From: a virus | Lineage: Duplodnaviria; Caudoviricetes | IMG/VR virus record: IMGVR_UViG_3300033153_010346 | Span: 1-54,294 of that record | Length of the DNA: 54,294 nt | Direction: 5' to 3' (one strand) | Shown here: piece after piece, positions 3,613 to 38,687 of the stretch | Numbering within the stretch: position 1 is the first letter of the stretch | Layout: every line of letters starts with the position of its first letter | Translations under genes and position numbers: made by a program | Notes under the pieces: generated by a model | What the model was told of the DNA's origin: nothing | What the model saw: the letters and a program-made list of their open reading frames with translations, nothing else | Databases searched by the model: none

Positions 3613-3695
3613 GCTCCCGTGGCGGAATTGGCAGACGCGCTAGTCTTAGGAACTAGTCTTTCGGGGTGTAGGTTCGAGTCCTACCGGGAGTACCA
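3613..3695 (+). tRNA. tRNA-Leu(TAG)
   Basis: cloverleaf, loop CT-TAG-GA, variable arm, GTTCGAGTC, CCA. Confidence 0.95.
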
Positions 3696-3713
3696 AAAAT
3701 TTAAGGCAAGGTT

Positions 3714-3941
3714 ATGGAAGAGAAAAAAGAACGTAAGGACTTAAGACCCCTTTGGCTTTCAGCAACAGTTATGAGTTATTTGTTGGCCGGATGGATTTTA
3801 ATTGATGCTATTGTATCCCTCTCTTTATTTACAGGGTTTTTTGTGATTCCTCTTCTTGGTTTGGCTGTTTGGTGTAATAGAATTGCCGTTAATGAATGTG
3901 ATTATTGGTATAACAAAAGTAGCAGTAACAAATATTGGTAA
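3714..3941 (+). CDS. small membrane protein
   Basis: two hydrophobic segments. Confidence 0.6.
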   Translation: MEEKKERKDLRPLWLSATVMSYLLAGWILIDAIVSLSLFTGFFVIPLLGLAVWCNRIAVNECDYWYNKSSSNKYW

Positions 3942-3944
3942 GGA

Positions 3945-4289
3945 GTGGTTGTGAGGATTGATAAGGATTATGTCAATGAAATGTGTCGAAGAGAAAAGTT
4001 TGATGCTTCTTATGGCGATTATGTAGTTTATCAACATCCAGATGGTTATTACATTGCCAGATTAGATATTGATACATTCCATCCTTTAGGTAATTTGGTT
4101 TGGCCTACTGATGAACTTGTAAACCATGGTATAAATGATGCGATGCCAAATAGTTGTTATGTTGAACGAAAAGGTGGAACTTGGGATGAAGCTAATGACA
4201 AAATGTGTGAAGTTCTTCAAAAACTAACAATACAAAATTATCAAGAATATGTGACTTATAAACCTGTAGACCGTAAACCATACAGATGA
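3945..4289 (+). CDS. hypothetical protein
   Basis: 114-aa ORF after AAGGAG; exact start uncertain. Confidence 0.6.
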   Translation: MVVRIDKDYVNEMCRREKFDASYGDYVVYQHPDGYYIARLDIDTFHPLGNLVWPTDELVNHGINDAMPNSCYVERKGGTWDEANDKMCEVLQKLTIQNYQEYVTYKPVDRKPYR

Positions 4290-4292
4290 TAA

Positions 4293-4367
4293 GGAAGCGT
4301 GAAGGGAATTGGTATACCTCTTTGTTTCAAACACAAAGGCTTGGTGGTTCGACTCCACCCGCTTCTA
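4293..4367 (+). tRNA. tRNA-Leu(CAA), short variable loop, no encoded CCA
   Basis: GGAAGCG/CGCTTCT acceptor, TTTGT-TTCAAAC-ACAAA arm, canonical T arm. Confidence 0.85.
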
Positions 4368-4376
4368 TAAGATTAC

Positions 4377-4789
4377 AGGTGTACATAGCTAGGTAGGAAG
4401 TGAGATTAGTTATGTATCTTAAGATTATAGACAATCTAGGTAATATCAAAATGTATGAAGGGAAGGAGATTTATTTTTATCGTTATGAATCCCAATTTGG
4501 GAGTGACCCCATAACGGAAGAAGTAACTGATAGTGATGAATGGTATTTAGTATTATCCATTGAAATAGACGGTAAAACACTAAAACCTATTCAAACTAAC
4601 CAACGTGTTACAAAATGGAGTAGTGAGATAGAAAGTGTTTTAAATGGACGTGTTGTTGAAGAGAAATGTTCAAAGTGTGAATACACATGCGACCCATCAG
4701 TAAAACAATCGCGTGTTTTCATAATGAATGACGACGGCAACACAATAGAAAAAATAATGTAGCCTAAAATAACTTGGCTATGTACACCT
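4377..4789. repeat. 18-bp inverted repeat (4377-4394 / 4772-4789) bracketing ORF 4400-4762
   Basis: AGGTGTACATAGCTAGGT pairs with ACTTGGCTATGTACACCT (two G-U). Confidence 0.85.
4400..4762 (+). CDS. hypothetical protein
   Basis: ORF between two tRNAs; GTG 4400 or ATG 4412 start. Confidence 0.65.
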   Translation: MRLVMYLKIIDNLGNIKMYEGKEIYFYRYESQFGSDPITEEVTDSDEWYLVLSIEIDGKTLKPIQTNQRVTKWSSEIESVLNGRVVEEKCSKCEYTCDPSVKQSRVFIMNDDGNTIEKIM

Positions 4790-4797
4790 AAAATTAT

Positions 4798-4872
4798 GAG
4801 CCAGTAGCCAAATGGCAAGGCAGGTGGTTGCAACCCATCGATGTGGGGGTTCAAGTCCCTCCTGGCTCTCCA
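4798..4872 (+). tRNA. tRNA-Cys(GCA)
   Basis: loop TT-GCA-AC, U73, CCA. Confidence 0.93.
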
Positions 4873-4877
4873 AACTT

Positions 4878-4952
4878 GGGACTGTGACGGGAATTGGTAT
4901 ACCTACTTGGCTTAAAACCAAGTGTCTCTGAGTTCGACTCTCAGCGGTCCTA
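4878..4952 (+). tRNA. tRNA-Leu(TAA), short variable loop, no encoded CCA
   Basis: CTTGG-CTTAAAA-CCAAG arm; D arm nearly identical to Leu(CAA). Confidence 0.85.
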
Positions 4953-4965
4953 TTAAACAGAGGTT

Positions 4966-5235
4966 ATGGGAATGAGGCAAAACGAGAAAACATTTGAGAA
5001 GTTGTTTGAAACCGAAACACGTTATCAAATATACCCTCGAAACTGGTACTGCTTTGACCTAGGTATAGGGGACCATACTCTACTAATGCCAAGAGTTTCC
5101 CATAACCCCTTATTTATGTTGTTTATCGCGGCATCGGCATTTAAAGGTTGGGGGAGGTTCATAAGCATGGGCTCAAACCTTACTAGAAAATTTGCCCTCG
5201 TATCGGCTCTGGCTTCTAACCAGGAGAAACCGTAA
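4966..5235 (+). CDS. small hypothetical protein (paralog family), 3' end overlaps atypical tRNA
   Basis: GAGG RBS; NPLFMLFIAAS. Confidence 0.5.
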   Translation: MGMRQNEKTFEKLFETETRYQIYPRNWYCFDLGIGDHTLLMPRVSHNPLFMLFIAASAFKGWGRFISMGSNLTRKFALVSALASNQEKP

Positions 5236-5273
5236 CTGGACACATGTGGGTTCGACTCCTACCGAGGGTACCA
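5194..5273 (+). tRNA. atypical tRNA-Arg(TCT)-like RNA lacking a normal D arm
   Basis: GCCCTCG/CGAGGGT-A-CCA, T arm GTGGG-TTCGACT-CCTAC, TCTGG-CTTCTAA-CCAGG arm only 7 nt after the acceptor strand. Confidence 0.75.
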
Positions 5274-5289
5274 AATTTAGGAATTCTTC

Positions 5290-5469
5290 GTGGAACAAAA
5301 AGAACGAACGAAAGCCTTAAAACAACGTATTAAGTCTCTTGAGAGGACACTGGCACATACCACTAATCTGTTAGCAATCTTCAATGTTGACGAACCTGAT
5401 GCAAAAAAACATAGTGCCGTGGATTTTCAAGTGGAGAAAAACAGGTCTTTACTAGACCGTAAGATATAG
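5290..5469 (+). CDS. small hypothetical protein (59 aa, not in ORF track)
   Basis: AGGA RBS, GTG start, open to TAG at 5469. Confidence 0.45.
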   Translation: MEQKERTKALKQRIKSLERTLAHTTNLLAIFNVDEPDAKKHSAVDFQVEKNRSLLDRKI

Positions 5470-5541
5470 CCAGATCGTCCAATGTTAGGACATTGGGCTT
5501 TGAACCCAAGAATGTAGGTTAGACTCCTGCTCTGGCTGCCA
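5468..5541 (+). tRNA. tRNA-Gln(TTG)
   Basis: loop CT-TTG-AA, CCA; D-loop GT and T-loop TTAGACT variant. Confidence 0.9.
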
Positions 5542-5594
5542 AATATTTGTTTGTAACCCTTCGTGGTTACTTTACACGGTCTAAGAAATCGTGA

Positions 5595-5670
5595 GGCGCA
5601 ATCGTATAATGGTTTATTATACCCGGTTGTCTCCCGGAAGATCAGGGTTCGATTCCCTGTTGTGCCGCCA
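5595..5670 (+). tRNA. tRNA-Asp(GTC)
   Basis: loop TT-GTC-TC, G73, CCA. Confidence 0.9.
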
Positions 5671-5751
5671 AATTGCTCTTGCATGATCAACTTATGGATA
5701 CTTGCTATATTTAGCACGCTTTGAGCATAGATAGTTCTATAAACGAACAAT

Positions 5752-5824
5752 GGTCTCGTAGCTCAATTGGCAGAGCACCTGTGTTACATACAGGATGTTG
5801 ATGGTTCGATTCCATCCGAGACTA
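5752..5824 (+). tRNA. tRNA-Val(TAC), no encoded CCA
   Basis: CCTGT-GTTACAT-ACAGG arm. Confidence 0.9.
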
Positions 5825-5827
5825 TAT

Positions 5828-5903
5828 GGCTCTGTAGCTCAGACAGTAGAGCATGCGGTTGAAGCCCGCAGTGTCGTGGGTGCAATTCCTACCGGGGCCA
5901 CCA
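5828..5903 (+). tRNA. tRNA-Phe(GAA)
   Basis: loop TT-GAA-GC, CCA; T-loop TGCAATT. Confidence 0.9.
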
Positions 5904-5911
5904 TAAATTTA

Positions 5912-5996
5912 GGAAGGTCGCATTGGTGTGCTTATCTGGTTTGAACCCAGTGATGTCCTCACGGATGTGGGGGTTCGACTCCCTCACCTTCCTCCA
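5912..5996 (+). tRNA. tRNA-Ser(TGA)
   Basis: loop TT-TGA-AC, long variable arm, compact D arm, U73, CCA. Confidence 0.85.
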
Positions 5997-6017
5997 AATC
6001 ACTCAGAGGGTATAAAT

Positions 6018-6242
6018 ATGAGTTTTTGTACATGTGATCTAAAAGTTGGTGTCACAACATGTGATGTTTGTCATGGAGATATAACTTTATCAAAACCGTG
6101 TATTTTTTGTGAAAACTCAGTAACAGTTGCAAGGGGTATCATGTTTCATGGTGTAGGCATAACAAAAGAATCTGCACAGACATATTTATGTTCCCATATT
6201 ACTTGTTACAAAAACTATAGTAAAAATCACTCAGAAGGTTGA
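6018..6242 (+). CDS. small Cys-rich (putative Zn-binding) protein
   Basis: GAGGG RBS, ATG 6018, CxC/CxxC motifs; stop lies inside next tRNA. Confidence 0.6.
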   Translation: MSFCTCDLKVGVTTCDVCHGDITLSKPCIFCENSVTVARGIMFHGVGITKESAQTYLCSHITCYKNYSKNHSEG

Positions 6243-6320
6243 CAGAGTGGCAATGTGCTGGGTTGCTAACCCAAGGCCGTCCTCACGGATGCATTGGTTC
6301 AATCCCAATACCTTCTGCCA
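6233..6320 (+). tRNA. tRNA-Ser(GCT)
   Basis: loop TT-GCT-AA, long variable arm, G73, CCA. Confidence 0.9.
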
Positions 6321-6335
6321 AATTAGGTATTAACT

Positions 6336-6743
6336 ATGTTGGAAAAACTCATGAAACGATGGAAAGAAATAATTTTCATATTTTCGGTTGTAGCTATAGC
6401 CTTTACATTTAATGGTTATCGGATAGAAGCTGAGGAAACTGCCACTAAGGTAAAGAAGTTTGAAGAGACATTTGACAAAATTGCGCAGATTGCAGATGAC
6501 CTCAAGAATCCAAATATATGGCTTCGAAATTATTTGGTAAATCATGGTGTAGATTCTGTAGTTGCGAAGTCTTGGAGTAATATCCCAAGAGGGCCTGTTA
6601 TGACTAAGAGTGATACAACGGTTAATATCCCCTACCTCGAAGCTGATGTTTTGCCAGACATAGGGGTCCAAAAGGTGCGCAAATCAAACGGCGCTACCAA
6701 AATCATGGACACCCTGTGGAATTTCTCAAAAAAGGCGAAATAA
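6336..6743 (+). CDS. N-terminally membrane-anchored hypothetical protein
   Basis: IIFIFSVVAIAFTF segment. Confidence 0.65.
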   Translation: MLEKLMKRWKEIIFIFSVVAIAFTFNGYRIEAEETATKVKKFEETFDKIAQIADDLKNPNIWLRNYLVNHGVDSVVAKSWSNIPRGPVMTKSDTTVNIPYLEADVLPDIGVQKVRKSNGATKIMDTLWNFSKKAK

Positions 6744-6747
6744 CTCA

Positions 6748-6774
6748 GAACCTTTTTCGATTTCCGGTGTTATA
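6748..6774 (+). promoter_or_regulatory. putative promoter class A (GAAC-N16-TGTTATA)
   Basis: intergenic, 13 nt before tRNA-Met. Confidence 0.65.
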
Positions 6775-6787
6775 CATATACAGATCA

Positions 6788-6863
6788 TGCGGGTAGCAGG
6801 GCTGGTGTCCTGGTCGGTCTCATAAGCCGATGGCGAAGGGTTCGATTCCCTTGCCCGCAACCA
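6788..6863 (+). tRNA. tRNA-Met(CAT), initiator-like
   Basis: TGCGGG...CCCGCAACCA ends and TCGGT-CTCATAA-GCCGA arm resemble tRNA-fMet. Confidence 0.88.
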
Positions 6864-6881
6864 AATTTAGAGGAGAAAGAA

Positions 6882-7208
6882 ATGGAAGCAACTGTAAACG
6901 AACTATTGGTATTGAAAAACACTTTACAAACCCGTAAAGCCGAAGTGCAGTCTTTGCTACGTTTGTGTGTTGCTCGTCGTGTTAACGAAGTAAGATACGA
7001 AGAAGAAGTTCGTAAAACTATTGATGAAAGCCGTTACGACCCTAATGATCTAGAGATTCGTAACACTGAGCTAAGCACTGCACTTTTCGAGCTAGATCGG
7101 GCAATCAAAGTGGCTAATGCCAAAACTGTTGTCAACGTAGAAAACGTAGACATTGCTACTTTGCTAGCACCTGTAAAACCCCGTCCTTGGGTTGAAACTC
7201 AAGAATAA
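6882..7208 (+). CDS. DUF6847/DIP1984-like coiled-coil protein
   Basis: N-terminal TVNELLVLKNTL and C-terminal ELDRAIKVANAKTVV pattern; GAGGAG RBS. Confidence 0.6.
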   Translation: MEATVNELLVLKNTLQTRKAEVQSLLRLCVARRVNEVRYEEEVRKTIDESRYDPNDLEIRNTELSTALFELDRAIKVANAKTVVNVENVDIATLLAPVKPRPWVETQE

Positions 7209-7217
7209 GGGGAGCAT

Positions 7218-7481
7218 GAGTAAATAGCTAGCCGAAAGCTTTGGCTGTTAACAGTTCGGGGCGAGTAGGCGAAAAGGAAAAAACTTGTTGAGTATATTGG
7301 TATCCCCAATATGACACTAGCTGTGTTGTTACAGCCTCCTTTAATAAGGTAAACTATAGTGCCCGTAAACCCATACTTAATAACCATTAAGGTTATTGGT
7401 AGTTGAATAAGACGGGTCAAGTCATGTTGTTTGTTTTTGTTAGTTGTTGTTCTTCAACAAATTTTTCTCTGCTATTTGCTC
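7218..7481 (+). ncRNA. putative structured ncRNA downstream of DUF6847-like gene
   Basis: 11-bp closing stem 7218-7228/7471-7481 with several nested helices; no credible ORF. Confidence 0.65.
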
Positions 7482-7488
7482 TTTATAT

Positions 7489-7561
7489 TCCTTCGTCGTC
7501 TAATTGGAGAGGACATTTGGCTACGAACCAAAAAATGCGGGTTCGATTCCTGTCGAGGGGA
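7489..7561 (+). tRNA. tRNA-Arg(ACG), no encoded CCA
   Basis: TTTGG-CTACGAA-CCAAA arm. Confidence 0.88.
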
Positions 7562-7580
7562 TTTACATAAAGGGTAATAT

Positions 7581-7892
7581 ATGACCACAGTAAATAAAAG
7601 GAAATATTGGCGGGAGATAAAGAGAAAGAATCGGGCGCGGAATCGTAAGTTTATTTTTGAATATCTAAGTGATCATCCATGTGTTGATTGCCCAGAAGCT
7701 GACCCAATAGTATTAGAATTTGATCACGTAAGAGGTGAAAAGCTAGATACAATAAGTAACCTAGCAGTAAGATACACAGCAAGTCTGAAAAAGATTAAAG
7801 AAGAGATAGAGAAGTGTGAGGTTCGATGTGCGAATTGTCACAGACGCAGACATGCTAAGTTGTTGAAAGAAAAGAATAGATCGATGGTGTAG
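7581..7892 (+). CDS. HNH endonuclease
   Basis: CVDC...FDHVRG...CEVRCANCHRRRH. Confidence 0.85.
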   Translation: MTTVNKRKYWREIKRKNRARNRKFIFEYLSDHPCVDCPEADPIVLEFDHVRGEKLDTISNLAVRYTASLKKIKEEIEKCEVRCANCHRRRHAKLLKEKNRSMV

Positions 7893-7951
7893 TGACAACA
7901 TCTCTGGCTCCAAACCAGAGGACCAGGGTTTGATTCCTTGTCGGTCTGCCA
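7878..7951 (+). tRNA. tRNA-Trp(CCA)
   Basis: loop CT-CCA-AA, G73, CCA; T-loop TTTGATT. Confidence 0.9.
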
Positions 7952-7955
7952 AATT

Positions 7956-8159
7956 ATGAGCTACATTGGACCTGAAGGTATTAGGAGAAAAAGTGTTACT
8001 CCTTTGAATGTAAAGAGATTAACCTTTTCCAAGTATATGTACAAAGCCGAGTGTGGTAGTTGTTGTACAGTCCACAAGTTTAATCCAAGTGGAATAACCC
8101 CCTCATTTGTGTGTGATATATGCGGGACAAAAAATGTAGCAAACTTTACAATCATGTAA
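7956..8159 (+). CDS. small Zn-ribbon protein
   Basis: CGSC...CDICG. Confidence 0.55.
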   Translation: MSYIGPEGIRRKSVTPLNVKRLTFSKYMYKAECGSCCTVHKFNPSGITPSFVCDICGTKNVANFTIM

Positions 8160-8160
8160 T

Positions 8161-8232
8161 GGGGTGCGTACTGGGGTACAGGAAGCTTTTGCAAGGCATC
8201 CCGGCTGGGTTCGATTCCCAGGCCCTCCACCA
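8161..8232 (+). tRNA. tRNA-Ala(TGC)
   Basis: G3:U70, loop TT-TGC-AA, CCA; compact D arm and some mismatches. Confidence 0.85.
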
Positions 8233-8237
8233 AATAT

Positions 8238-8310
8238 GAGGTGCGGATTGAAGTCCGAGAATCTCTTAACAGGGAACTCTTGCTGGGTTCGACTCCCAGG
8301 CACCTCCCCA
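8238..8310 (+). ncRNA. tRNA-like RNA without assignable anticodon
   Basis: perfect GAGGTGC/GCACCTC acceptor, C73-CCA, canonical T arm; mini D hairpin and irregular anticodon arm. Confidence 0.7.
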
Positions 8311-8314
8311 AATG

Positions 8315-8385
8315 GGCCTATTCGTCTAGTGGAAGGATATCTGACTTTCTATCAGATGGCGAGGGTTCGATTCCCTCATAGGCTA
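8315..8385 (+). tRNA. tRNA-Glu(TTC), no encoded CCA
   Basis: TCTGA-CTTTCTA-TCAGA arm. Confidence 0.9.
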
Positions 8386-8394
8386 CAAAGATTT

Positions 8395-8469
8395 GCCTCC
8401 ATAGCTCAATGGTAGAGCCAGAGTTTTGTAAACTCTAGGTTGTGGGTTCGACTCCTACTGGGGGCTCCA
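8395..8469 (+). tRNA. tRNA-Thr(TGT)
   Basis: AGAGT-TTTGTAA-ACTCT arm, CCA. Confidence 0.9.
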
Positions 8470-8473
8470 AGGA

Positions 8474-8708
8474 GTGGCGGGCGGAAAGACCGTGTAAAGG
8501 GTGAAAATCCCTACCGTCACACAGAATGGAACTGCGTTATGGACCAGAAAGACTGTGCATTGGGTGCAAATCCCTGCTATGACGCGGTTTATAAATGGTA
8601 GGTAGGAAAGACCGTGGACGGAGTTGACGTTTTAACTCGTATAACGGGTTAGTCAGAACTTGGCGATCCCAAGAAGTCTTCTGGAGTGGTGAGAATCCAC
8701 ACCTACCA
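8474..8708 (+). ncRNA. three tandem copies of a structured RNA motif (GAAAGAC hairpin + T-loop hairpin in a closing stem)
   Basis: copies 8474-8520, 8530-8589, 8596-8708 share RGAAAGACYGTG and GG-TGMRAAT-CC; closing stems differ in sequence but all pair. Confidence 0.75.
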
Positions 8709-8718
8709 CCGACAATTA

Positions 8719-8793
8719 GCTAGGATAGTGTTAGCAGTAGCACGTCTGGTTGTGGGCCAGAAAGGCTTGGTGCAAGTCCAGGTCCTAGTACCA
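8719..8793 (+). tRNA. tRNA-His(GTG), A73, no genomic G-1
   Basis: TCTGG-TTGTGGG-CCAGA arm, CCA; T-loop TGCAAGT. Confidence 0.85.
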
Positions 8794-8818
8794 ATAAATG
8801 TAGTAAGGAGAAAACAGA

Positions 8819-9361
8819 ATGAATGTAATGGTGGATTTGGAAACCATGGGAGTAGACGATTCAGCGGCTATTGTTTCAATCGGGGCTGTTGAATTTAACA
8901 AGGATAAGATAGGTTCGGAGTTTTATCGTAACATCACCTTGTACTCTAATCAAAGTCGAGGTAGAACGTACACACCTAGTACAATCGAATGGTGGCTTAA
9001 ACAAGACAAGGCGGCTCAGGAAGGTTTGTTCAATCCTACACCTGTTGATCTCTTAACTGCTTTGAAAGACTTCCAGAAGTATGTAACTGGGGTGTTAAGT
9101 AAGAATGATGGTATGTGGGCAAATGGAGTAACATTTGATCTAATTATCCTAAGCCATGCCTTTAAAGCCATGAATGTGAAAAAACCTTGGCATTTCCGAA
9201 ATGAGTGTTGCGTTAGACCACTACGTAAGATTGGTTACTTGGTTGGCCTGAAATATGAAGATTATTATGGAGAAGGTGTAGCTCACAACGCTTTGGACGA
9301 TGCGAAGCTACAAGCGAAATTTGTTCAAGATTTTATTCGTAAAATGGAGAGCAATAAATAA
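8819..9361 (+). CDS. DEDDh 3'-5' exonuclease (Rv2179c/ExoVIII-like)
   Basis: VMVDLETMG, WANGVTFD, AHNALDDA motifs. Confidence 0.85.
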   Translation: MNVMVDLETMGVDDSAAIVSIGAVEFNKDKIGSEFYRNITLYSNQSRGRTYTPSTIEWWLKQDKAAQEGLFNPTPVDLLTALKDFQKYVTGVLSKNDGMWANGVTFDLIILSHAFKAMNVKKPWHFRNECCVRPLRKIGYLVGLKYEDYYGEGVAHNALDDAKLQAKFVQDFIRKMESNK

Positions 9362-9370
9362 GGAGTTTTT

Positions 9371-9760
9371 ATGAAGACATTGTTAACCCTTCTGGCCGCT
9401 CTGATTCTCATTGGTGGAGTTTTTAGTGAGTCAGTTCAAGCACAATTTTATGACTTGGATGGTCAGCTTAGTTTGACATGGACAGCCCCGAACCCGGCTA
9501 CCAATCCACCTCTGAAAGATTACATTGTGACTTATTACACGTTTGATTATGGCACTAGTGTGTATGATACATCCCAAGTAGCTACTACAAACGTATTTGA
9601 TTCAACAGTTAATCTCGTGAGTCAAGGAAGCTGGTGTTATGCTGAATTGCAATCAAGAGATTATCTGGATAGGGTTTCATCTGTAGTTGTTAGTGATACG
9701 GCTTATTACGACGCAGGTATTGGCATTGACCCCCCGACGGGGCCAACTTGGACACAATAG
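9371..9760 (+). CDS. secreted fibronectin type III-like protein
   Basis: signal peptide (..VQA/Q), LTWTAP...YIVTY. Confidence 0.7.
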   Translation: MKTLLTLLAALILIGGVFSESVQAQFYDLDGQLSLTWTAPNPATNPPLKDYIVTYYTFDYGTSVYDTSQVATTNVFDSTVNLVSQGSWCYAELQSRDYLDRVSSVVVSDTAYYDAGIGIDPPTGPTWTQ

Positions 9761-10008
9761 GCCTTTTCCTACAAGTTGTGCCCAATCCTAACGATGGCGG
9801 ATTTAAGTTATATGTCAATCTCCCTTTCAAAGAGAGTTATCAAATAACTTTCTACAATATAATAGGGGCAGTAAGATTAGAAGAATTTATAAAAGGAAAA
9901 GGTCGTCATGTTATCAACTACAAACTTTCTTGGCCTTCGGGCATTTACCTTGCTTGTGTGCAGAATTCTTATATGCATGTTTGTACTAAGTTCGTTCTCG
10001 TTCAGTGA
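9748..10008 (+). CDS. T9SS type-A C-terminal sorting domain, possibly fused to upstream ORF by -1 frameshift
   Basis: VPNP...ITFYNIIG...PSGIYL...TKFVLVQ pattern; TTG start without RBS. Confidence 0.65.
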   Translation: MDTIGLFLQVVPNPNDGGFKLYVNLPFKESYQITFYNIIGAVRLEEFIKGKGRHVINYKLSWPSGIYLACVQNSYMHVCTKFVLVQ

Positions 10009-10321
10009 GGTAGTTATTGAAGGTGATTATCTAAAATGGATAGCTGTAGGAGATGACGATAATTATGGAACCGCGACGAAGTATGACATAAGGTATTCTA
10101 CAGAGAACCTTGCGAACTGGGAGTTGGGAGATGTACTACTGACCGCCCCAACCCCCTCGCAGTCAGGAATGAGGGACAGTGCTTACATTGATCTTATTCC
10201 TGGTGCTTATTACTTTTGTATCAGGGTTAGAGACGAAGTGTGGAACTGGTCACTATGGTCTAACGTTGTGATGAAAGATTCAAGACAAATTGAACCGCCT
10301 TATTTAGTGGAGTGGGAATAA
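9908..10321 (+). CDS. FN3-like domain protein
   Basis: WIAVGDD...GTATKYDIRYS...YYFCIRVRDEVWNWSLWSNV; start uncertain. Confidence 0.65.
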   Translation: MLSTTNFLGLRAFTLLVCRILICMFVLSSFSFSEVVIEGDYLKWIAVGDDDNYGTATKYDIRYSTENLANWELGDVLLTAPTPSQSGMRDSAYIDLIPGAYYFCIRVRDEVWNWSLWSNVVMKDSRQIEPPYLVEWE

Positions 10322-10566
10322 TGGCTAAGAAAATCAGACAAAGTGTAAATCGTGATATGGCTACTAAAGCTAAGTCTATGATACTTACTATTTGGTGTGG
10401 TTATCTTGAGAAAGAAGTAACTGTTGAAGTTGATACTAATTATAGCGTTTTTGGTGGGATTTCAGTAAGAGGCCATATATGTGAGTGTACCTGTGACTAT
10501 GCTGTAAACTTTGAATTCACATGCGAGTGTGGACACAAACACGAAATAAGACTGTATGAATCCTAG
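10321..10566 (+). CDS. small Cys-rich protein
   Basis: TAATG coupling; CECTC, CECGHKH. Confidence 0.55.
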   Translation: MAKKIRQSVNRDMATKAKSMILTIWCGYLEKEVTVEVDTNYSVFGGISVRGHICECTCDYAVNFEFTCECGHKHEIRLYES

Positions 10567-10639
10567 GCTCTTTAGCTCAATGGTAGAGCGATTGGCTGTT
10601 AACCATTTGACAAAGGTTCGATTCCTTTAGGAGCCTCCA
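10566..10639 (+). tRNA. tRNA-Asn(GTT)
   Basis: loop CT-GTT-AA, CCA; G1-C72, U73. Confidence 0.9.
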
Positions 10640-10644
10640 AATTT

Positions 10645-10721
10645 GCGCCTATAACTCAACTAGGTAGAGTAGCAGGCTTTTAACCTGAAAGTTCAAGGTT
10701 CGATTCCTTGTGGGCGCACCA
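10645..10721 (+). tRNA. tRNA-Lys(TTT)
   Basis: loop CT-TTT-AA, CCA. Confidence 0.93.
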
Positions 10722-10727
10722 AATTAA

Positions 10728-10815
10728 GGGTTGGTAAGCATAGTGGCGAATGCCCCTGACTGTAGATCAGGTACCCAAGCGGTGAACATCGTAGGTTCGA
10801 CTCCTACCCAACCCA
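10728..10815 (+). tRNA. tRNA-Tyr(GTA), no encoded CCA
   Basis: CCTGA-CTGTAGA-TCAGG arm, long variable region. Confidence 0.9.
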
Positions 10816-10831
10816 TTAAATAGGAGAATAT

Positions 10832-11377
10832 ATGGCAGCGGAACGACAATTTGAGCTTGATTCACACCATTTGCTTAGATACAACTTTGCTATGTCACAT
10901 TGTTTTGGTAGTGTGTTAGACATTGCTTGTGGCTATGGGGAAGGTTCTAACATGTTGTCTACATCAACTAAGATAACAAACGTTGTTGGTGTAGATATAG
11001 CACAAGATGTAGTAGATGTTGCAAGTAAACGATATCCTAATATCATTTTTGAATGTGCTAACTTATTAAACTATAAAGGACAATTTGACTCAGTAGTTAG
11101 CTTTGAAACAGTTGAGCATATTAAAGATTTCAAAAAAACAAAGCAACAATTAAAAAGTCTACTTAAACCAAAAGGGTTATTAATTTTTTCAGTGCCCGCT
11201 AACGAATCAGAAGGAACCAACCCGCATCATGTTGTGTGGGATCTAACACAAAATGATTTTGAGGAATTTTCCGAATGTCATTTTTTTCATCAAACCTCAA
11301 ATTTTCTTATAAAAGAAACGTTTGATGAAGTAAGCAGTGTAATTTATAACCTTATTGGAATATATATTAACAAGTAA
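10832..11377 (+). CDS. class I SAM-dependent methyltransferase
   Basis: VLDIACGYGEG, FDSVVSFETVEH, LKPKG. Confidence 0.85.
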   Translation: MAAERQFELDSHHLLRYNFAMSHCFGSVLDIACGYGEGSNMLSTSTKITNVVGVDIAQDVVDVASKRYPNIIFECANLLNYKGQFDSVVSFETVEHIKDFKKTKQQLKSLLKPKGLLIFSVPANESEGTNPHHVVWDLTQNDFEEFSECHFFHQTSNFLIKETFDEVSSVIYNLIGIYINK

Positions 11378-11453
11378 CGTGCAGTAGCTCAGTGAGTAGA
11401 GCACTTGTCTGATACACAAGCGGCCGGTGGTGCAAATCCATCCTGCACGACCA
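11378..11453 (+). tRNA. tRNA-Ile(GAT)
   Basis: loop CT-GAT-AC, CCA; T-loop TGCAAAT. Confidence 0.9.
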
Positions 11454-11458
11454 AATAA

Positions 11459-11534
11459 GCCCCAGTGGTGTTAATGATTAGCATGACAGCCTTCCAAGCT
11501 GACGGTCAGGGTTTGAATCCCTGTTGGGGCTCCA
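11459..11534 (+). tRNA. tRNA-Gly(TCC)
   Basis: loop CT-TCC-AA, U73, CCA; T-loop TTTGAAT. Confidence 0.9.
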
Positions 11535-11625
11535 AAATTATTAGTTAATCCCCTCTGTCTGAGGACTTTGGGCGTCCATCAAGTTGGTGCACTTACTAGG
11601 TGGACACTAAAATTAGAGGTAGGAA

Positions 11626-11823
11626 ATGCCTAAACCAAAACCTGACGAAAAACGGGATGAATTTCTACCTAGATGTATGGATAGTCCTGAAATGAAGAGT
11701 GAGTACCCAACCAACACTAAACAACGGTATGCGGTTTGTGTTGGTATTTGGAAAACCCATTTGAAAAGAAAGCGTAAAAGTGATATCGAGGAAGAGACTA
11801 GAGAGGGCAAATCAAATAGCTGA
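11626..11823 (+). CDS. small phage protein (PKP..E...F..RCM...QR.AVC..W)
   Basis: pattern recalled from phage head-associated proteins; GAGG RBS. Confidence 0.6.
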   Translation: MPKPKPDEKRDEFLPRCMDSPEMKSEYPTNTKQRYAVCVGIWKTHLKRKRKSDIEEETREGKSNS

Positions 11824-12094
11824 ACGTACATACACTCAATACCATTATGGTAACTTTTATCGATACAACCATGACAACCCTAATGTCATTCATGATATTT
11901 TTGGATTCAGGCATGAATTGGTGGATCTTAAATCGTTGGGGATGTATCGTAAAACCAGGGTATATCGTTGGCAGACAAGGAGTAAGGAATGGTACAAGGC
12001 CAATTGGGCTACAGCTTGGGGAACGAAAACACGCCAACAGTTACGTGCAGATGAAAATTTACGGGAACAAATTCGAGAAACTGGTGTTATATAA
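11780..12094 (+). CDS. hypothetical protein
   Basis: ORF in chain, GTG start. Confidence 0.5.
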   Translation: MISRKRLERANQIAERTYTQYHYGNFYRYNHDNPNVIHDIFGFRHELVDLKSLGMYRKTRVYRWQTRSKEWYKANWATAWGTKTRQQLRADENLREQIRETGVI

Positions 12095-12106
12095 GTAGGA
12101 GGATTT

Positions 12107-12430
12107 ATGCATAGGCTCTGGCTGATTGTGCTGATTGTTATGGTTTGCGCCATTATAGCTTTAGCTACACCAGAAAGAGAAGTAGACCTCTCAAAGGCAG
12201 ATATTCATTACCTGCAGATTGAACTAGCAGACAGCACTAAGATCAACCTAGCGACCCTTCTGAGCTTAGAAATGCCGGAAGGTGATACAATTACCCTTAT
12301 GATAGCTGTTGATGAAAACGGTGATTGTGAAGTAGCTGATATTATATCAACGCGAGAAACCAGTGCTGTAGAAGTCTGGTGTGATTTCCTTGATGAATTA
12401 ACACGAATTATAAAAGAATGTAAAAAATAA
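12107..12430 (+). CDS. exported/membrane-anchored hypothetical protein
   Basis: AGGAGG RBS, signal-like N-terminus. Confidence 0.7.
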   Translation: MHRLWLIVLIVMVCAIIALATPEREVDLSKADIHYLQIELADSTKINLATLLSLEMPEGDTITLMIAVDENGDCEVADIISTRETSAVEVWCDFLDELTRIIKECKK

Positions 12431-12506
12431 CGGAGTGTAGGAAAGAGGATATCCACTTGGTTTGGGACCAAGTATAACGCTGGTTCGAATCCAGCCACTC
12501 CGACCA
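12431..12506 (+). tRNA. tRNA-Pro(TGG)
   Basis: C1-G72, loop TT-TGG-GA, CCA. Confidence 0.92.
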
Positions 12507-12606
12507 AATTAGGGGTTGTTATGCTAATTATCAAACTCGAAAAATGGGAAGACGGACAACTTCTTCCTGTGAGTCAACAAGAGATCGATAAGCTTATAGA
12601 AGCTAT

Positions 12607-12682
12607 TGGGCAGTAACTCAAGTGGTAGAGACCGTGCCTTATATGCACGTAGTTACAGGTTCGAGTCCTGTCTGCCCAACCA
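12607..12682 (+). tRNA. tRNA-Ile(TAT)
   Basis: CGTGC-CTTATAT-GCACG arm, A73, CCA. Confidence 0.88.
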
Positions 12683-20774: not shown

Positions 20775-21623
20775 TTATAGATTTTCTTCCCATGTCCTGT
20801 ATCGTTTGTATCTGTCATAAGGGTCTATATCCATATAATTGGCTAACTGTCCTATCATCTCATCATACCCTGGTACAGCGGCTGATAAAACAGAGTTACT
20901 GGTTAAGCTTCTATCGTTGACTGGTTTTTCTGCACGAGCTATAGGAATGTCCATGTTGAAATGTTTTTGGAGTAAGAGCAGAAGGTGATATTTGCTGATA
21001 GGCGAGGAGTTTGTAACTTGGTGCAAGCCTGTCAAGTTTTTGTCTATAGCTAAGTCTATGACTCTGGCTAACTCAAAGGTTGTTATTCCACCCCACATTG
21101 ATTGCGCCCAACCTGTGATAGTTTCTTCTTGTCTTAAAACCCAATCAAATAAGCCAATCCCTTCTTTTAGTTCTGGTCCAATGATTGAAGTACGAATTGT
21201 CAGGTCTTTCTTGTTATCTAGTTCTCCTAGCGATTTGGATTGTCCGTATGCGTCTCGTGGGTCCTTAGAAGCTGATTCATCGTAGGGCCCGTTCAACCCT
21301 GAGAAAACACAATCTGTACTTAACTGAATCACCTTGATTGGAAACTCTGAAAGATAATGAGGGAGTAATGCATTAAGATAGATAGTTTCAGACTGATGTT
21401 TAGGGTTGTTGGCTTTTTGGTTTAGGATACCAACGCAATTGATAATAACATCGGGTAATACAGTCTTGTAAATTGAGTCAAATACATCCAACCGATCAGT
21501 ATTGAAATCATATTGGTCCCTTGTCATCCCTATTAGTTCATATTTACCCGTAGGCATTAGATAGTCATGTATCATATGCCCAGCCATACCATTTGCTCCC
21601 AATAACAAAATCCTTACCGCCAT
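20775..21623 (-). CDS. RmlD-like NDP-4-keto-6-deoxysugar reductase
   Basis: GANGMAG, STDCVFSG, YGQSK. Confidence 0.88.
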   Translation of the reverse strand: MAVRILLLGANGMAGHMIHDYLMPTGKYELIGMTRDQYDFNTDRLDVFDSIYKTVLPDVIINCVGILNQKANNPKHQSETIYLNALLPHYLSEFPIKVIQLSTDCVFSGLNGPYDESASKDPRDAYGQSKSLGELDNKKDLTIRTSIIGPELKEGIGLFDWVLRQEETITGWAQSMWGGITTFELARVIDLAIDKNLTGLHQVTNSSPISKYHLLLLLQKHFNMDIPIARAEKPVNDRSLTSNSVLSAAVPGYDEMIGQLANYMDIDPYDRYKRYRTWEENL

Positions 21624-22036
21624 TTAATGCTCCAGTCATAAAGATTTGCATCAAAACGTATATCGTCATCAATACTTTCATGCATAGGACTGTTAGAAAA
21701 TACCATTATTGTGGAATCTGGTTTTAACGATTGCCAGCCGTGTGCCATTGCGGGGGGAACAACGATGCTGTTATTTGAGCTATCAGACAAATACCACACT
21801 TTAAAATCAAACAACGAACCCTTTTCAGCATTCATCATTGCTGTCACTAGTTTAATGGCTCCATGGATACATGTTATCGCTTTATATTCTTTTTGGTGTC
21901 CATGAAAAGCCCTAACCATCCCAGTCTCAAAATTTTTACAAACGTAAACACGAGCGGGATCAAACTGACCTACTGGTACATTGATAAATGACCCACGATC
22001 ATCAAACGCAGTAAAATTAGTCCATTCTACAACCAT
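21614..22036 (-). CDS. RmlC/WxcM-like cupin sugar epimerase
   Basis: DDRG, RAFHGH, VPPAMAHG. Confidence 0.82.
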   Translation of the reverse strand: MVVEWTNFTAFDDRGSFINVPVGQFDPARVYVCKNFETGMVRAFHGHQKEYKAITCIHGAIKLVTAMMNAEKGSLFDFKVWYLSDSSNNSIVVPPAMAHGWQSLKPDSTIMVFSNSPMHESIDDDIRFDANLYDWSIKWR

Positions 22037-22968
22037 TATATCTTAAACTCCACTCTCCCTACGTTTGAGTATTTGATATCCGACAAATTCTTTACACGAC
22101 CATTCTGGTAGAGGCAGATTATGTCATGTATGGTGCTTTGTAAGTCTAATTTGTCAAAATGGTTTAGGGTTGCTTTGATCTTACTATTGTCAGCTTTGTA
22201 GTTACGCTGGTCCTCAAACAGCATTTCGGTTACATTCAACTTAACATGGGGTAGGCGATCCACAATAGTTCTAGCTATATCTACAATCTTAGAATTTGTA
22301 CTCATGAGGTTATAAGTACCAAATTTGGTTGTTCTCATGTTAGCACACATGGTATTTGCAACATCTTGTACATGAACTAATGGTCGCCATTGATTTCCAC
22401 CAAAGACTGATATTTCCCCACGAACCAAGGCTCGAAGAGTTAATGTGTTGACAACCAAATCATTTCTGAATCTACCAGAGATACCATGAAGAGTACCTAA
22501 GCGGTATATGAGTGTATTTGGGCGATCCGCGAGTATCTCTTCTGCCTCAATTTTGTTTTGGGCATAAAATGACAATGGGTCTAAAGTACTCTCCTCAGTC
22601 GACAGTTTTTTACCAGAGCCATAGACTGAACAAGAACTAGGGAAAACAAGTATACCATCAAACATTTCCATTAACATCCTAACAGATTCTACATTTACTG
22701 CATACGCTGTTTGATGGTGAATTCGACATGCTTCATCTCCAACAATTCCAGCCATGTGGAAGACTACATCAAATTTGTGTTGATTGAAAAAGTTTTTCAT
22801 CTCTTGTGTATCTGTAACATCTAGGTTTTGGAACTTGATGTTTTTAAGATACTCTTTTTCATACAACAAGTTATCAATCACATAGACAGTGTGGTGGTTG
22901 TACCTGTGTAAAGTATCCACAATTGCGCTACCTATGTACCCTGCTCCCCCTGTAACTAGTATATTCAT
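22036..22968 (-). CDS. NAD-dependent sugar epimerase/dehydratase
   Basis: ATGA-coupled start MNILVTGGAGYIG; SSCSVYG, YAQNK. Confidence 0.9.
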   Translation of the reverse strand: MNILVTGGAGYIGSAIVDTLHRYNHHTVYVIDNLLYEKEYLKNIKFQNLDVTDTQEMKNFFNQHKFDVVFHMAGIVGDEACRIHHQTAYAVNVESVRMLMEMFDGILVFPSSCSVYGSGKKLSTEESTLDPLSFYAQNKIEAEEILADRPNTLIYRLGTLHGISGRFRNDLVVNTLTLRALVRGEISVFGGNQWRPLVHVQDVANTMCANMRTTKFGTYNLMSTNSKIVDIARTIVDRLPHVKLNVTEMLFEDQRNYKADNSKIKATLNHFDKLDLQSTIHDIICLYQNGRVKNLSDIKYSNVGRVEFKI

Positions 22969-24086
22969 AATTGATTTCCTATTAAGAATTGAACTACTTT
23001 GTCTGACACTAATAAATCTCCATATCCCGTAGGAAGTTCCCAACTTGAGTTGGCCATAATATGAAGTGTGTGGTGAAAGTTTAGTACGAGTTTAGAACAA
23101 TGAAGAATATTTACAGCATTAACCCCAGCTACTATCGAACCCCCAGTTTCAATTACTTCTTGTCTTTCCATACTGTCTCGGAGTATAACAGAAGGGATAT
23201 TGAAGATGCATGCTTCCTCTTGAACTGTTCCGCTGTCAGTTAAAATCACTCTGGCAAACATCTCTAAAGAACCAAAGTCTATAAATCCTAGTGGTTCTGT
23301 GACAATAACTGTCTCTTGGAGTTCTTTGTACAGGTCTGGATGATGTTCTTTTGCTTTTTGTTTGGCTCTAGGGTGCATGGGGTATACAATAGGGAGTTTT
23401 GTTTCCTCTGTAAAATCAATTAATGCCATTAAGATATGTTCAAATCTTTCAGGTTTATCAACTGTTTCAGCTCTATGGCAAGTTACTAATGCATAGTTAT
23501 TCCAAGTAATACCAAGCTGCTTAAAGATAGTTGACTCCGCCATTTTACTATCATGTAATTGCAATACCTCAAAAATAGGATTACCTGTGACAAAGATTTT
23601 TTCCTTAGGAATGCCGGCCGCCAACAGATTTTGTTTACTCATTTCGGTGTATGGTAGATTGTAACTAGACACGGCATCAATTGCCCTTCTGTTTATCTCT
23701 TCTGGGACTCGTTTATCATAACATCGATTCCCTGCTTCCATGTGGTATACGGGATATCCCATTCGTTCAACTAACAAGGCACAGAGGCTGGTATTTGTGT
23801 CGCCTAGGATTAAAACTTTGTCAGGGTTCTCAATTTTAAGTATCTCCTCAATATCAATAAATGTATTCCCTATTTGGTGACCTAATTTTTTGGTTGGTGG
23901 TTTACTAACTCTGTAGTTCGGTTCTCTTATTCCTAACTCTTGATAGAACACATCGGACATCATATGTTGATCGTTTTGTTGGGTGTCTACTAAAATATGG
24001 TCACAGTGTGTATCCAATTTCCTTATAATCTCAGACAACCGAATTAGCTCTGGTCTTGTACCAACAATTGTAAGTATCTTAGTCAA
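22965..24086 (-). CDS. UDP-N-acetylhexosamine 2-epimerase (WecB/FnlC-type)
   Basis: GTRPELIRL, GDTN, HMEAGNR, PEEINRR, TDSGTVQEEA. Confidence 0.92.
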   Translation of the reverse strand: MTKILTIVGTRPELIRLSEIIRKLDTHCDHILVDTQQNDQHMMSDVFYQELGIREPNYRVSKPPTKKLGHQIGNTFIDIEEILKIENPDKVLILGDTNTSLCALLVERMGYPVYHMEAGNRCYDKRVPEEINRRAIDAVSSYNLPYTEMSKQNLLAAGIPKEKIFVTGNPIFEVLQLHDSKMAESTIFKQLGITWNNYALVTCHRAETVDKPERFEHILMALIDFTEETKLPIVYPMHPRAKQKAKEHHPDLYKELQETVIVTEPLGFIDFGSLEMFARVILTDSGTVQEEACIFNIPSVILRDSMERQEVIETGGSIVAGVNAVNILHCSKLVLNFHHTLHIMANSSWELPTGYGDLLVSDKVVQFLIGNQL

Positions 24087-24897
24087 TGTACCCTTCTTCC
24101 CTTAAAACTTTCTTGTCTACAGCTGGGTGTAAAATTGGTTGTAATTCATCCATCCATTTCAGTTTAATAATTGCATATTCTATTGACCGTCGATATCTCT
24201 CATTGAGCACTTTGTCATTTGCAAAGAATTTCTTAGCTTGGTTGCTATGAATACGTCTGCTCATAAGAGGTAGAGGAACGCCCAAAACTTTGTGTTTGTC
24301 GGCTATCTGTAGCCAAAGATCATAATCTTGTTTGTACCGTAATCGTTTGTCGTAACCCGCAACTGAATTATACACTTCTTTGGACATGATAACTGCGGCT
24401 CCGTTTATGAAATTATTACCAAAGTCTTGTTCCACTAACTTCTTCCAAATTTCTTTGCCATCGTTATCTGGTACGTTCGCAACATCGTGCATTTTAACAC
24501 CTTGGAGAACATAGCTGGGGTCAAAAAACAACTCGCGATAGCCTGAATATGAGAATTGGGCTTTAGTATGTTTCATATAGGTGAGTTGTACTTCGGTTTT
24601 GTCAGGGTGAAAAAAATCATCACAGGCCATAGGACAAATCCAATCACCAGTAGCTTGTTGTATTCCGAAGTCCCAAGCTACGGCTACTCCTTGGTTGGTC
24701 CCCAATTGGAAGAATTTGATGCGTTCGTCAGACCTGTCCACCTCATTGTACCATTTAATAGGAAGATCTGTGCCGTCGTCAACCAAAATAATTTCCATTT
24801 CTACTGGCCCTGTTTGGAATAGGCAAGAGTCAATGGCATCTTGTACCAGCTTGGATTGTGGATTGTACACTGGGATTATTACGCTAACTTTATTCAT
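24079..24897 (-). CDS. glycosyltransferase family 2
   Basis: VSVIIPVYN, VDDG, CDD, QDYDLW. Confidence 0.92.
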   Translation of the reverse strand: MNKVSVIIPVYNPQSKLVQDAIDSCLFQTGPVEMEIILVDDGTDLPIKWYNEVDRSDERIKFFQLGTNQGVAVAWDFGIQQATGDWICPMACDDFFHPDKTEVQLTYMKHTKAQFSYSGYRELFFDPSYVLQGVKMHDVANVPDNDGKEIWKKLVEQDFGNNFINGAAVIMSKEVYNSVAGYDKRLRYKQDYDLWLQIADKHKVLGVPLPLMSRRIHSNQAKKFFANDKVLNERYRRSIEYAIIKLKWMDELQPILHPAVDKKVLREEGYID

Positions 24898-25534
24898 TTC
24901 TTTCCAATATCATTAGTCCATGGCTGTATGCATGGAGTTCTTTTATTTTCCATGTTTTGGTATGTGCCAAGAAGTCATTTGTGGATTGAGTAGACCCAGG
25001 ATGATCCAAATAGTCATGGATCATAATCCACTTTCTTACTTTATGCTCATTTTTGAAATATAATGCTAGTGAATGATCATAGCCCTTATCTGAATCCATA
25101 TGAACTAAATCTACTGTTCCTATATCAACATCTAAATCATCACCATAGGTAAATTTAAATTCAATATTATTTTTTTCACAAATAAGTTTTAGCTCTTTCG
25201 CTACACACTTAGTATCAGGATGTTTGTCAGTACAATGAATACTTTTAGGTCGACCACTTATTAGGGCCCTGGCCGACAAACCTCCCGCTAATCCTAAATC
25301 TACAACTTCTTGGCATTGTGAAGCATACCACCTGTACACCGGAGCCAAGGAGCTGTTATCTTGAAAGTATAGCCCACTACATATTTGTTTGTACGATTCC
25401 TCTAAATTATACGTAAGGTTTAAGTCTCCTCCTTCCCTATCAAACTTATGATTCATAGCTACAGCCCTGTCGACATAGTTGAATGGACAATTGGGTAGAC
25501 CCGCATAATTGGGTGGTTCTTTAATTATTAGCAA
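24890..25534 (-). CDS. putative class I methyltransferase (Methyltransf_24-like)
   Basis: VDLGLAGG.S, DLVHMD, IMIHDY, GLMIL. Confidence 0.6.
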   Translation of the reverse strand: MLIIKEPPNYAGLPNCPFNYVDRAVAMNHKFDREGGDLNLTYNLEESYKQICSGLYFQDNSSLAPVYRWYASQCQEVVDLGLAGGLSARALISGRPKSIHCTDKHPDTKCVAKELKLICEKNNIEFKFTYGDDLDVDIGTVDLVHMDSDKGYDHSLALYFKNEHKVRKWIMIHDYLDHPGSTQSTNDFLAHTKTWKIKELHAYSHGLMILERNE

Positions 25535-38303: not shown

Positions 38304-38687
38304 ATGTGTGAAATACTTATAAGAGCAAAGGAGCATTCTTTGGTACTTGCAAAGGAGGCCGATTTGACAGAAAGACAAATAGAAGCTAGGAAAGTGATAC
38401 CTAGAAAAGGGTCCCCAATTGTGGTGCGTGGAGATGGGCATACTTGGGGTAAAAAAGAAGGACCACCCAACCACGTAATAGTAAAAATACCTGGTTTAGA
38501 TCCAGGGAAGGTACAGGATCTACTTATAGAAGATGACGCGAATGATGGTGAAGGGAAACAGATTTTGTACAACATACGTAAGTATAAAATAACTGGGACC
38601 CTTATGAATTCAATGATAGCTAGTGGTGGTATTATTACTATCTCTGAAAATAACCTACGCCAAGGTATTAAGCAATGGCAGATCTAA
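38304..38687 (+). CDS. hypothetical protein
   Basis: GAGG RBS before ATG 38304. Confidence 0.65.
   Translation: MCEILIRAKEHSLVLAKEADLTERQIEARKVIPRKGSPIVVRGDGHTWGKKEGPPNHVIVKIPGLDPGKVQDLLIEDDANDGEGKQILYNIRKYKITGTLMNSMIASGGIITISENNLRQGIKQWQI

Follow-up and report, generated by a model that had tools for sequence, protein, structure and literature searches.

Why should a phage gene for a small exported protein carry, in a -1 frame that opens shortly before its stop codon, the coding sequence of a secretion-system sorting domain? This question is raised by positions 9371-10321 of a linear viral sequence of 54,294 bases (Caudoviricetes; IMG/VR record IMGVR_UViG_3300033153_010346; completeness by CheckV, 46%), referred to below as the window. 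The locus comprises an open reading frame (ORF) for a 129-residue protein, ORF1 (9371-9760; plus strand, like the other elements of the locus); a -1-frame extension encoding a C-terminal type IX secretion system (T9SS) sorting domain; and a second small gene, ORF3, that overlaps the end of this extension. The reading put forward here, which we consider somewhat likelier true than false, is that programmed -1 ribosomal frameshifting at a C_CCC_CCG heptamer equips part of the ORF1 protein with the sorting domain; that both forms are made through slippage of some kind at the C run appears quite probable.

The frame junction and the sorting domain

Near the end of ORF1, the -1 frame is closed by a TGA codon at 9727-9729, followed by the run CCCCCC at 9730-9735. 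From 9730 onward this frame is open as far as the TGA at 10006-10008, reading PPDGANLDTIGLFLQVVPNP...SGIYLACV...KFVLVQ, and ORF1 itself ends in GIGIDPPTGPTWTQ*, its stop lying 22 nt past the run. In the phase of ORF1 the junction reads GA[C CCC CCG], with a slippery heptamer C_CCC_CCG (9730-9736; frame-0 codons CCC CCG, for Pro121 and Pro122) in the X_XXY_YYZ phase, and the extension proper (9736-10008) consists of 90 codons and a TGA, encoding a linker and then the sorting domain. An earlier, sequence-only reading of the locus had described the end of ORF1, the TGA, the run, the heptamer, and the opening of the -1 frame, all of which were recovered here in coordinates and sequence, and had taken them as a T9SS cargo gene split at the C run.

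Profile searches agreed with that reading on the nature of the -1 product. The -1 frame scored 29.1 bits against TIGR04183 (cut-off, 23) and 29.2 bits against PF18962 (cut-off, 27), positions 3-74 of the 75-position PF18962 profile aligning with residues 18-89 of the 92-residue frame—that is, at the extreme C-terminus. The AlphaFold2 model of the domain (predicted local distance difference test score, pLDDT, 86.2) is an all-beta structure, a beta-sandwich, for which Foldseek gave a single match at E<=1e-3, a DUF3244 protein, with the substrate chain of a T9SS complex at rank 6 (8glk_D; TMt 0.72, E 3.3e-3) and PorZ at rank 10. Judged from its profile matches, the -1 frame encodes a true T9SS type A sorting domain. 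A search of all six frames of the window with small custom hidden Markov models (HMMs) found neither another such domain nor a further member of the ORF1 family.

The 129-residue product and its protein family

The ORF1 protein matched no family in Pfam or NCBIfam at E<=1, and the Pfam HMM for PF00041 matched neither ORF1 nor its relative P0003. Nevertheless, its AlphaFold2 model (pLDDT 88) shows a beta-sandwich at residues 25-113, with a helix at residues 2-17, and FN3 domains dominate among the matches listed when the model was compared with the PDB by Foldseek (probability near 1; best E-value among these matches 6.3e-3, none <=1e-3). Furthermore, phmmer ties ORF1 to multi-fn3 proteins, PF00041 being found in 9/10 of those scanned. 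The model and this kinship point to an FN3 fold, so that the FN3 assignment of the sequence-only reading stands in fold and relationship, but not in family profiles. The N-terminus, MKTLLTLLAALILIGGVFSESVQA|QF, has an A-x-A|Q pattern that is conserved across the family alignment, by which a 24-residue Sec signal peptide cleaved after VQA is predicted (9371-9442).

An exhaustive, profile-free search with ORF1 returned 59 proteins at E<=0.001, among them 21 short forms of 114-139 residues that align with ORF1 from end to end; the closest Atlas clusters are also viral proteins, of 118-122 residues. Common to the short forms is the C-terminal motif TGI-x-PP-x3-W, after which one to a few more residues come; W127 is present in 21/21 and P121/P122 in at least 90%. 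Since the frame-0 tail of ORF1 matches this conserved end, the 129-residue form appears complete and C6 the true sequence. By its alignments, the 129-residue product stands as a whole protein within a large family of short proteins from phages, and its gene is not a truncated one, which makes the description of the locus as split cargo misleading. The model predicts no ordered structure for the tail (mean pLDDT 54 across the final nine residues), which, being conserved as well, may serve as an interaction motif. A [D/E]PP-x4-W tail is common to the ORF1 family and ORF3 (window 9728-9757 and 10291-10318), and resembles the start of a next FN3 repeat.

Other members of the family end differently. 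P0026 (203 aa, 39.5 bits) and P0027 (211 aa, 35.1 bits) are in-frame fusions of FN3 and Por_Secre_tail, and in the alignment the point of fusion falls, in both, at the beginning of the -1 frame of the window. Instead of the short tail or a sorting domain, P0036 and P0039 carry Dockerin_1, and P0040 carries CarboxypepD_reg and then a dockerin-like segment. The joining of one FN3 module to dockerin, CarboxypepD_reg, and sorting domains suggests, at the level of sequence, that the module serves for binding and is coupled to various anchoring devices. A -1 shift in the window would likewise give a protein composed of signal peptide, FN3 domain, and sorting domain, as the sequence-only reading had stated; it would be about 212 residues long (122 read in frame and 90 after the shift) and of the same design as the natural fusions P0026 and P0027.

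A diverged relative with the same arrangement

P0003, the closest relative of ORF1 (67-70% identity in ORF1), is encoded on a metagenome contig of 1573 bases (L002), which preserves the whole arrangement of the locus. At 792-798 of the contig, the sequence GAC CCC CCG, with C6, is identical to the window in bases and phase. The frame-0 tail GIDPPTGPTWTQ and the TAG stop are kept, and the -1 frame encodes a 90-codon sorting domain that aligns with that of the window without gaps. The ATG of an ORF3 homologue stands at the same place, with the 101-nt overlap kept (970-1070). Between the window and L002, ORF1 is saturated at its synonymous sites (pS 0.81), and this arrangement is therefore old. 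Homologs of the window gene thus occur both fused, as in P0026 and P0027, and split, as in L002.

This second sequence bears on the simplest alternative, an assembly or sequencing indel, by which the true sequence would be C7 and the locus a plain in-frame gene for a signal peptide, an FN3 domain, and a sorting domain. Homopolymers are indeed error-prone, and in-frame fusions occur in the family; however, two unrelated assemblies of diverged phages share C6, and under C7 the residues TGPTWTQ* would never be read, yet the tryptophan is found in all the short forms and the TAG stop is conserved. The shared C6 and the conserved frame-0 tail effectively exclude the indel, which the sequence-only reading had allowed for, and we regard it as extremely improbable.

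The genes flanking the locus in L002 (1-438 and 1386-1573) have no homologue in the window (best E in tblastn, about 1), and blastn alignment between the two is confined to 9440-9959 and 10213-10323. Since the flanking genes lack a counterpart, it is the three-part unit that is conserved, and the cassette of ORF1, sorting domain, and ORF3 seems, from this comparison, to travel as a unit between genomic neighborhoods.

The search of metagenome contigs gave L002 and a weak match, L003. No further DNA relative was found among viral contigs with ORF1, with the slip-site pattern (0 matches), or among GenBank phages by blastn or by tblastn with P0002 and P0009, and none of relevance was found with a five-sequence sub-alignment, P0010, P0014, or the ORF3 pair. 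A match in genome contigs (L001; 43% over 42 residues) was weak and was not confirmed by the family HMM. The pattern T-G-I-D-P-P...W occurred at 21 loci, none of which belonged to the family by hmmsearch at E<=0.01, the scores of L019 (14 bits) and L016 (13 bits) being taken as those of chance matches.

Selection on both frames

Is the -1 frame maintained as a coding sequence? In the stretch read in the -1 frame only, 9760-9906, comparison of the window with L002 gave pN 0.258 and pS 0.533 in this frame, and thus an omega (dN/dS) of about 0.34, the value obtained being 0.34; the other two frames contain stops and gave omega values of 0.97 and 2.9. The deficit of non-synonymous changes has a binomial P of 0.01-0.02 for this stretch and of 0.002 for the whole sorting domain. 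When the same 94 substitutions were placed randomly, the -1 frame remained open in 5.4% of 20,000 trials. In the overlap with ORF3 (9908-10008), omega was 0.18 for the sorting-domain frame and 0.69 for the ORF3 frame; this segment is, on these values, dual-coding, with the sorting domain the more constrained reading. The family alignment and this comparison show both frames downstream of the C run to be conserved and under selection, and both look functional.

Without a signal peptide, a sorting domain cannot get to the periplasmic side of the T9SS. Because the domain needs a signal peptide and is under selection, at least some of the product is expected to carry it joined to ORF1. The alternative is that it is not joined to ORF1 at all, being either the unexpressed relic of an old fusion or a product translated alone from TTG 9748. 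This codon gives some substance to the second version and qualifies the earlier statement that the domain has no ribosome-binding site of its own: a GGGG stands 5 bases upstream of it, and both are kept in L002. The TTG lies, however, inside a predicted hairpin stem (described below), a domain made from it could not reach the periplasmic side of the T9SS, and no such ORF has been recorded by gene callers, a search of the protein collection with the sorting domain alone giving 0 candidates. The relic, for its part, should decay, whereas all 90 codons of the -1 frame have stayed open and free of gaps, with the omega given above, at saturated divergence. We consider an unjoined domain unlikely in either version.

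The slip site and its surroundings

Runs of C6 or G6 occur three times in the whole window (9730, 35943, and 21752), against an expectation of 7 (independent bases) to 14.5 (first-order Markov), and only that at 9730 is in slip phase. Of the other two, the run at 35943-35948 lies in the portal gene, and that at 21752-21757, which reads CCCCCCG, lies on the minus strand inside an ORF at 21614-22036. Of the proline codons used in the window, the two that make up the heptamer, CCC (17%) and CCG (8%), are the rarest. In the relevant part of a survey in Escherichia coli, C_CC.C_CC.G is listed among 18 heptamers that, in the absence of stimulators, shift at more than 0.10% and that occur in genes less often than expected, and C_CCC_CCC is counted among the most efficient shift motifs (PMC4066793).

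Nucleotide identity between the window and L002 rises to 0.90-0.93 over 9723-9797, compared with 0.59 over all alignment columns, and codons for conserved residues are identical in 8/9 cases in the ORF1 tail vs. 33/74 upstream (P=0.0085). An RNA hairpin is predicted at 9740-9783, with an 11-bp stem interrupted by one bulge and a 4-bp inner stem that holds the frame-0 TAG; its calculated energy is -17.9 kcal/mol in the window and -20.8 kcal/mol in L002. Each of its 15 pairs is retained in the window and in L002: of four substitutions, two alter the apical loop, and the other two compensate each other within one pair (9745/9777, A-U to G-C). On the 5' side, an internal SD-like (Shine-Dalgarno-like) AGG at 9715-9717 stands 12 nt before the heptamer, and L002 has AAGGA 11 nt upstream; by analogy, this element is perhaps a 5' stimulator. 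Rfam gave no match in 9300-10400 at E<=1.

Several points weigh against programmed frameshifting. Dual coding, together with the conserved VPNP motif of the sorting domain, could fully explain the conservation of 9730-9797 without an RNA element. For its composition, the hairpin has no exceptional stability (z of -1.1 in the window and -2.0 in L002), and it begins 3 nt after the heptamer, with its uninterrupted 7-bp core 7 nt after, the usual spacer between heptamer and structure being 5-9 nt. With DNA for two family members only, covariation amounts to a single event, and the shuffle control was uninformative (263/500). The sorting domain of L002 scored 21.2 bits, under the Pfam cut-off of 27 (E 3.5e-4). 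Moreover, in the parts of the E. coli survey that concern them, CCN codons shift on average less than UUN or AAN codons, and the heptamer ending in CCG is of the weaker, "heterogeneous" type, a modest shifter (PMC4066793).

The C run could instead vary in length in the DNA. In such phase variation, which the sequence-only reading had placed beside frameshifting, slipped-strand mispairing would convert C6 to C7 in part of the phage population; the position of a homopolymer exactly at the frame junction, where one extra C fuses the frames, accords with it, as does selection on both frames, which any mixing mechanism would explain. Typical contingency tracts are, however, longer than C6. The run is C6 in both sequences despite saturated synonymous divergence, and no C7 allele occurs among the two; the conserved hairpin with its compensatory pair is left unexplained by tract-length switching; and the frame-0 tail is itself a conserved family motif. 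Phase variation is weakened accordingly, and we think it improbable. The locus shares with homopolymer contingency loci a homopolymer at the two-frame junction of a surface- or secretion-related gene, but differs in that the tract is short and of equal length in both relatives and both downstream frames are conserved.

Slippage might also occur during transcription, with RNA polymerase adding or dropping a C so that a fraction of the mRNAs encodes the fusion. A precedent, in the relevant section of a review, is the T5C5 tract of a Roseiflexus IS element, where a nascent hairpin lies just 5' of the tract; slippage there is undetectable without such context features, and it is described as efficient at 9 A or T (PMC5009743). 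Here, the 40 nt that precede the C run folded at -4.0 kcal/mol (z 0.47) and -5.3 kcal/mol (z -0.23), with no hairpin found immediately 5' of the run, and transcriptional slippage appears more doubtful still than a change in the DNA. Among the three mechanisms named in the sequence-only reading (frameshifting, phase variation, and an assembly indel), ribosomal frameshifting is the best supported, since site, phase, both ORFs, and hairpin are conserved at saturated divergence.

A proposed mechanism

Under programmed frameshifting, most ribosomes would read ORF1 in frame to give the 129-residue exported FN3-like protein with its PPxGxxW tail. A minority would slip back one base at 9730-9736, probably helped by the hairpin at 9740-9783 and perhaps also by the SD-like AGG upstream, and would go on through the 90 codons of the -1 frame to give the long form, which consists of a signal peptide, an FN3 domain as passenger, and a T9SS type A C-terminal sorting domain, the components of a T9SS cargo. 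Sec would carry both forms to the periplasm, where the short form, without the tag, would stay; only the long form would be passed to the putative T9SS of the host, and be released or displayed on the cell surface. Because only the long form is tagged, one gene would give a fixed ratio of periplasmic to surface-directed protein. That the frameshift sets a fixed tagged fraction in this way, and that the FN3 protein acts at two sites, the periplasm and the host surface, is a tentative proposal whose chances we put a little short of even. We infer the ribosomal nature of the slip, its efficiency, the two destinations of the product, and any role, for instance in modifying the surface or in excluding other phages.

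ORF3 and the genomic setting

ORF3 (9908-10321; 137 aa), which is in the frame of ORF1, starts 101 nt before the end of the sorting-domain ORF and is preceded by an SD-like AAGGAAAAGG at 9893-9902, within the sorting-domain coding region. Its first 33 codons are signal-peptide-like, and its end is EPPYLVEWE. An Atlas structure search found the protein FN3-like (TM 0.64-0.68 to fn3 clusters), in agreement with the earlier observation that a second FN3-like gene follows; in Pfam, the sole match was FNIII-A_GpJ (E 0.2), and a protein search with ORF3 returned no match but ORF3 itself. The Atlas clusters closest to ORF3, which contain FlgD_ig or Por_Secre_tail, are from Eiseniibacteriota and Zixiibacteriota.

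ORF1 has its own SD sequence, AAGGAG at 9360-9365, 5 nt before the ATG, and L002 also has AAGGAG. No promoter-like site on the plus strand and no terminator-like site was found in 8700-10700. The window encodes DNA polymerase, terminase, portal, tail, and endolysin genes. The cassette sits within a tRNA-rich stretch of small genes at 3.6-12.7 kb, in which 23 tRNA genes occur within 9 kb (3613-12682) with small ORFs between them; one of these, tRNA-Pro(UGG) at 12431-12506, would decode the slip-site proline codons. A minus-strand block at 20775-26615, adjoining replication genes, contains two nucleotide-sugar epimerase-like ORFs and a GtrB-like glycosyltransferase, and is another possible module for modification of the host surface or of phage DNA. 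A 1046-residue ORF at 42150-45290, with tail-protein PHROG matches, has many copies of an SQL[IV]W[DN]-type motif along its length; it was considered as a paralogue of the equally long neighboring ORF at 38675-41815, but the two are not paralogues.

SD-like cores precede 36/60 of the ORFs of at least 100 residues in the window, compared with 13.5% of random positions. Heavy use of SD sequences is unusual for Bacteroidota, and, together with the Atlas neighbors of ORF3, it hints at a host in the FCB group outside Bacteroidota. The host may, as a lead only, belong to a T9SS-bearing FCB phylum such as Eiseniibacteriota or Zixiibacteriota.

Relation to known systems

The elements at the junction recall the dnaX type of -1 cassette, in which a heptamer is combined with an upstream SD-like element and a downstream stem-loop. 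Like dnaX, the locus has an X_XXY_YYZ heptamer that is followed within a few bases by a stem-loop and preceded, 11-12 nt upstream, by an SD-like AGG. Unlike in dnaX, the heptamer is C_CCC_CCG and not A_AAA_AAG, the shifted product is longer rather than shorter, and the elements are predicted ones.

The appending of domains by frameshift is familiar in phages. As summarized in the pertinent section of a review, frameshifting in phages provides a fraction of the copies of a protein with a C-terminal Ig-like domain, with relatives in which the domain is in or out of frame; examples are T3 gene 10, Lactobacillus phage A2, and Listeria phages A118, A500, and PSA (Fraser et al., 2006, in PMC5009743). 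The locus described here resembles these systems in that a fraction of the product would gain a C-terminal beta-sandwich by a shift, which is -1 or +1 in the cases described there (PMC5009743), and in that the domain occurs in frame (P0026 and P0027) or out of frame (the window and L002). The carriers in that account are virion structural proteins, whose extensions decorate the particle (PMC5009743), whereas the carrier here has a predicted signal peptide, is encoded among tRNA and small genes outside the structural module, and would gain a sorting signal.

Phage-encoded T9SS type A cargo has also been described, in "Cryophage" (PMC7468147) and in BACON ORFs of crAss-like phages (PMC6949934). 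These share with the present locus a phage gene with a T9SS type A sorting domain and a presumed use of host secretion. In the passages of the two reports that deal with them, the genes appear as ordinary in-frame ORFs for enzymes or BACON repeats, with recoding not mentioned; the protein here is, in contrast, a small FN3 protein with an alternative short form. A functional parallel, as outlined in the abstract-level account available, is offered by the peroxisomal targeting signals of fungi and animals that are gated by readthrough (PMC4207609), in which recoding likewise exposes a cryptic C-terminal signal on part of the pool and gives dual localization. Those systems depend on stop-codon readthrough and concern eukaryotic peroxisomes, whereas a frameshift and a bacterial outer-membrane secretion system would be involved here.

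Both halves of the arrangement are thus known separately, to the extent that these sources describe them, as frameshift-appended phage domains (PMC5009743) and phage T9SS cargo (PMC7468147); their combination would be new. A literature search for a frameshift gating a secretion-system sorting signal found none, and a full-text search for "ribosomal frameshifting" together with "T9SS" gave no result. We know of no other secretion-system sorting signal under frameshift control.

Biological significance

What might a phage gain from such a device? The sequence-only reading had suggested that the phage might exploit or jam the secretion of its host, receptor masking being its example. Phage resistance in Flavobacterium has been linked, in the portion of that literature consulted, to mutations in gliding-motility and T9SS genes, and this link makes plausible a role of the cassette in altering the surface of the infected host cell. 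The long form might, for instance, mask or reshape structures of the cell surface that competing phages use.

If the proposed frameshift is real, it would represent a new use of recoding in bacteria and viruses, in which a frameshift decides whether an exported protein receives a tag for export across the outer membrane. Because gene callers record only the 129-residue form, tags of this kind would be invisible in catalogues of phage proteins. Many of the short phage members of the family may hide the same frameshift device.

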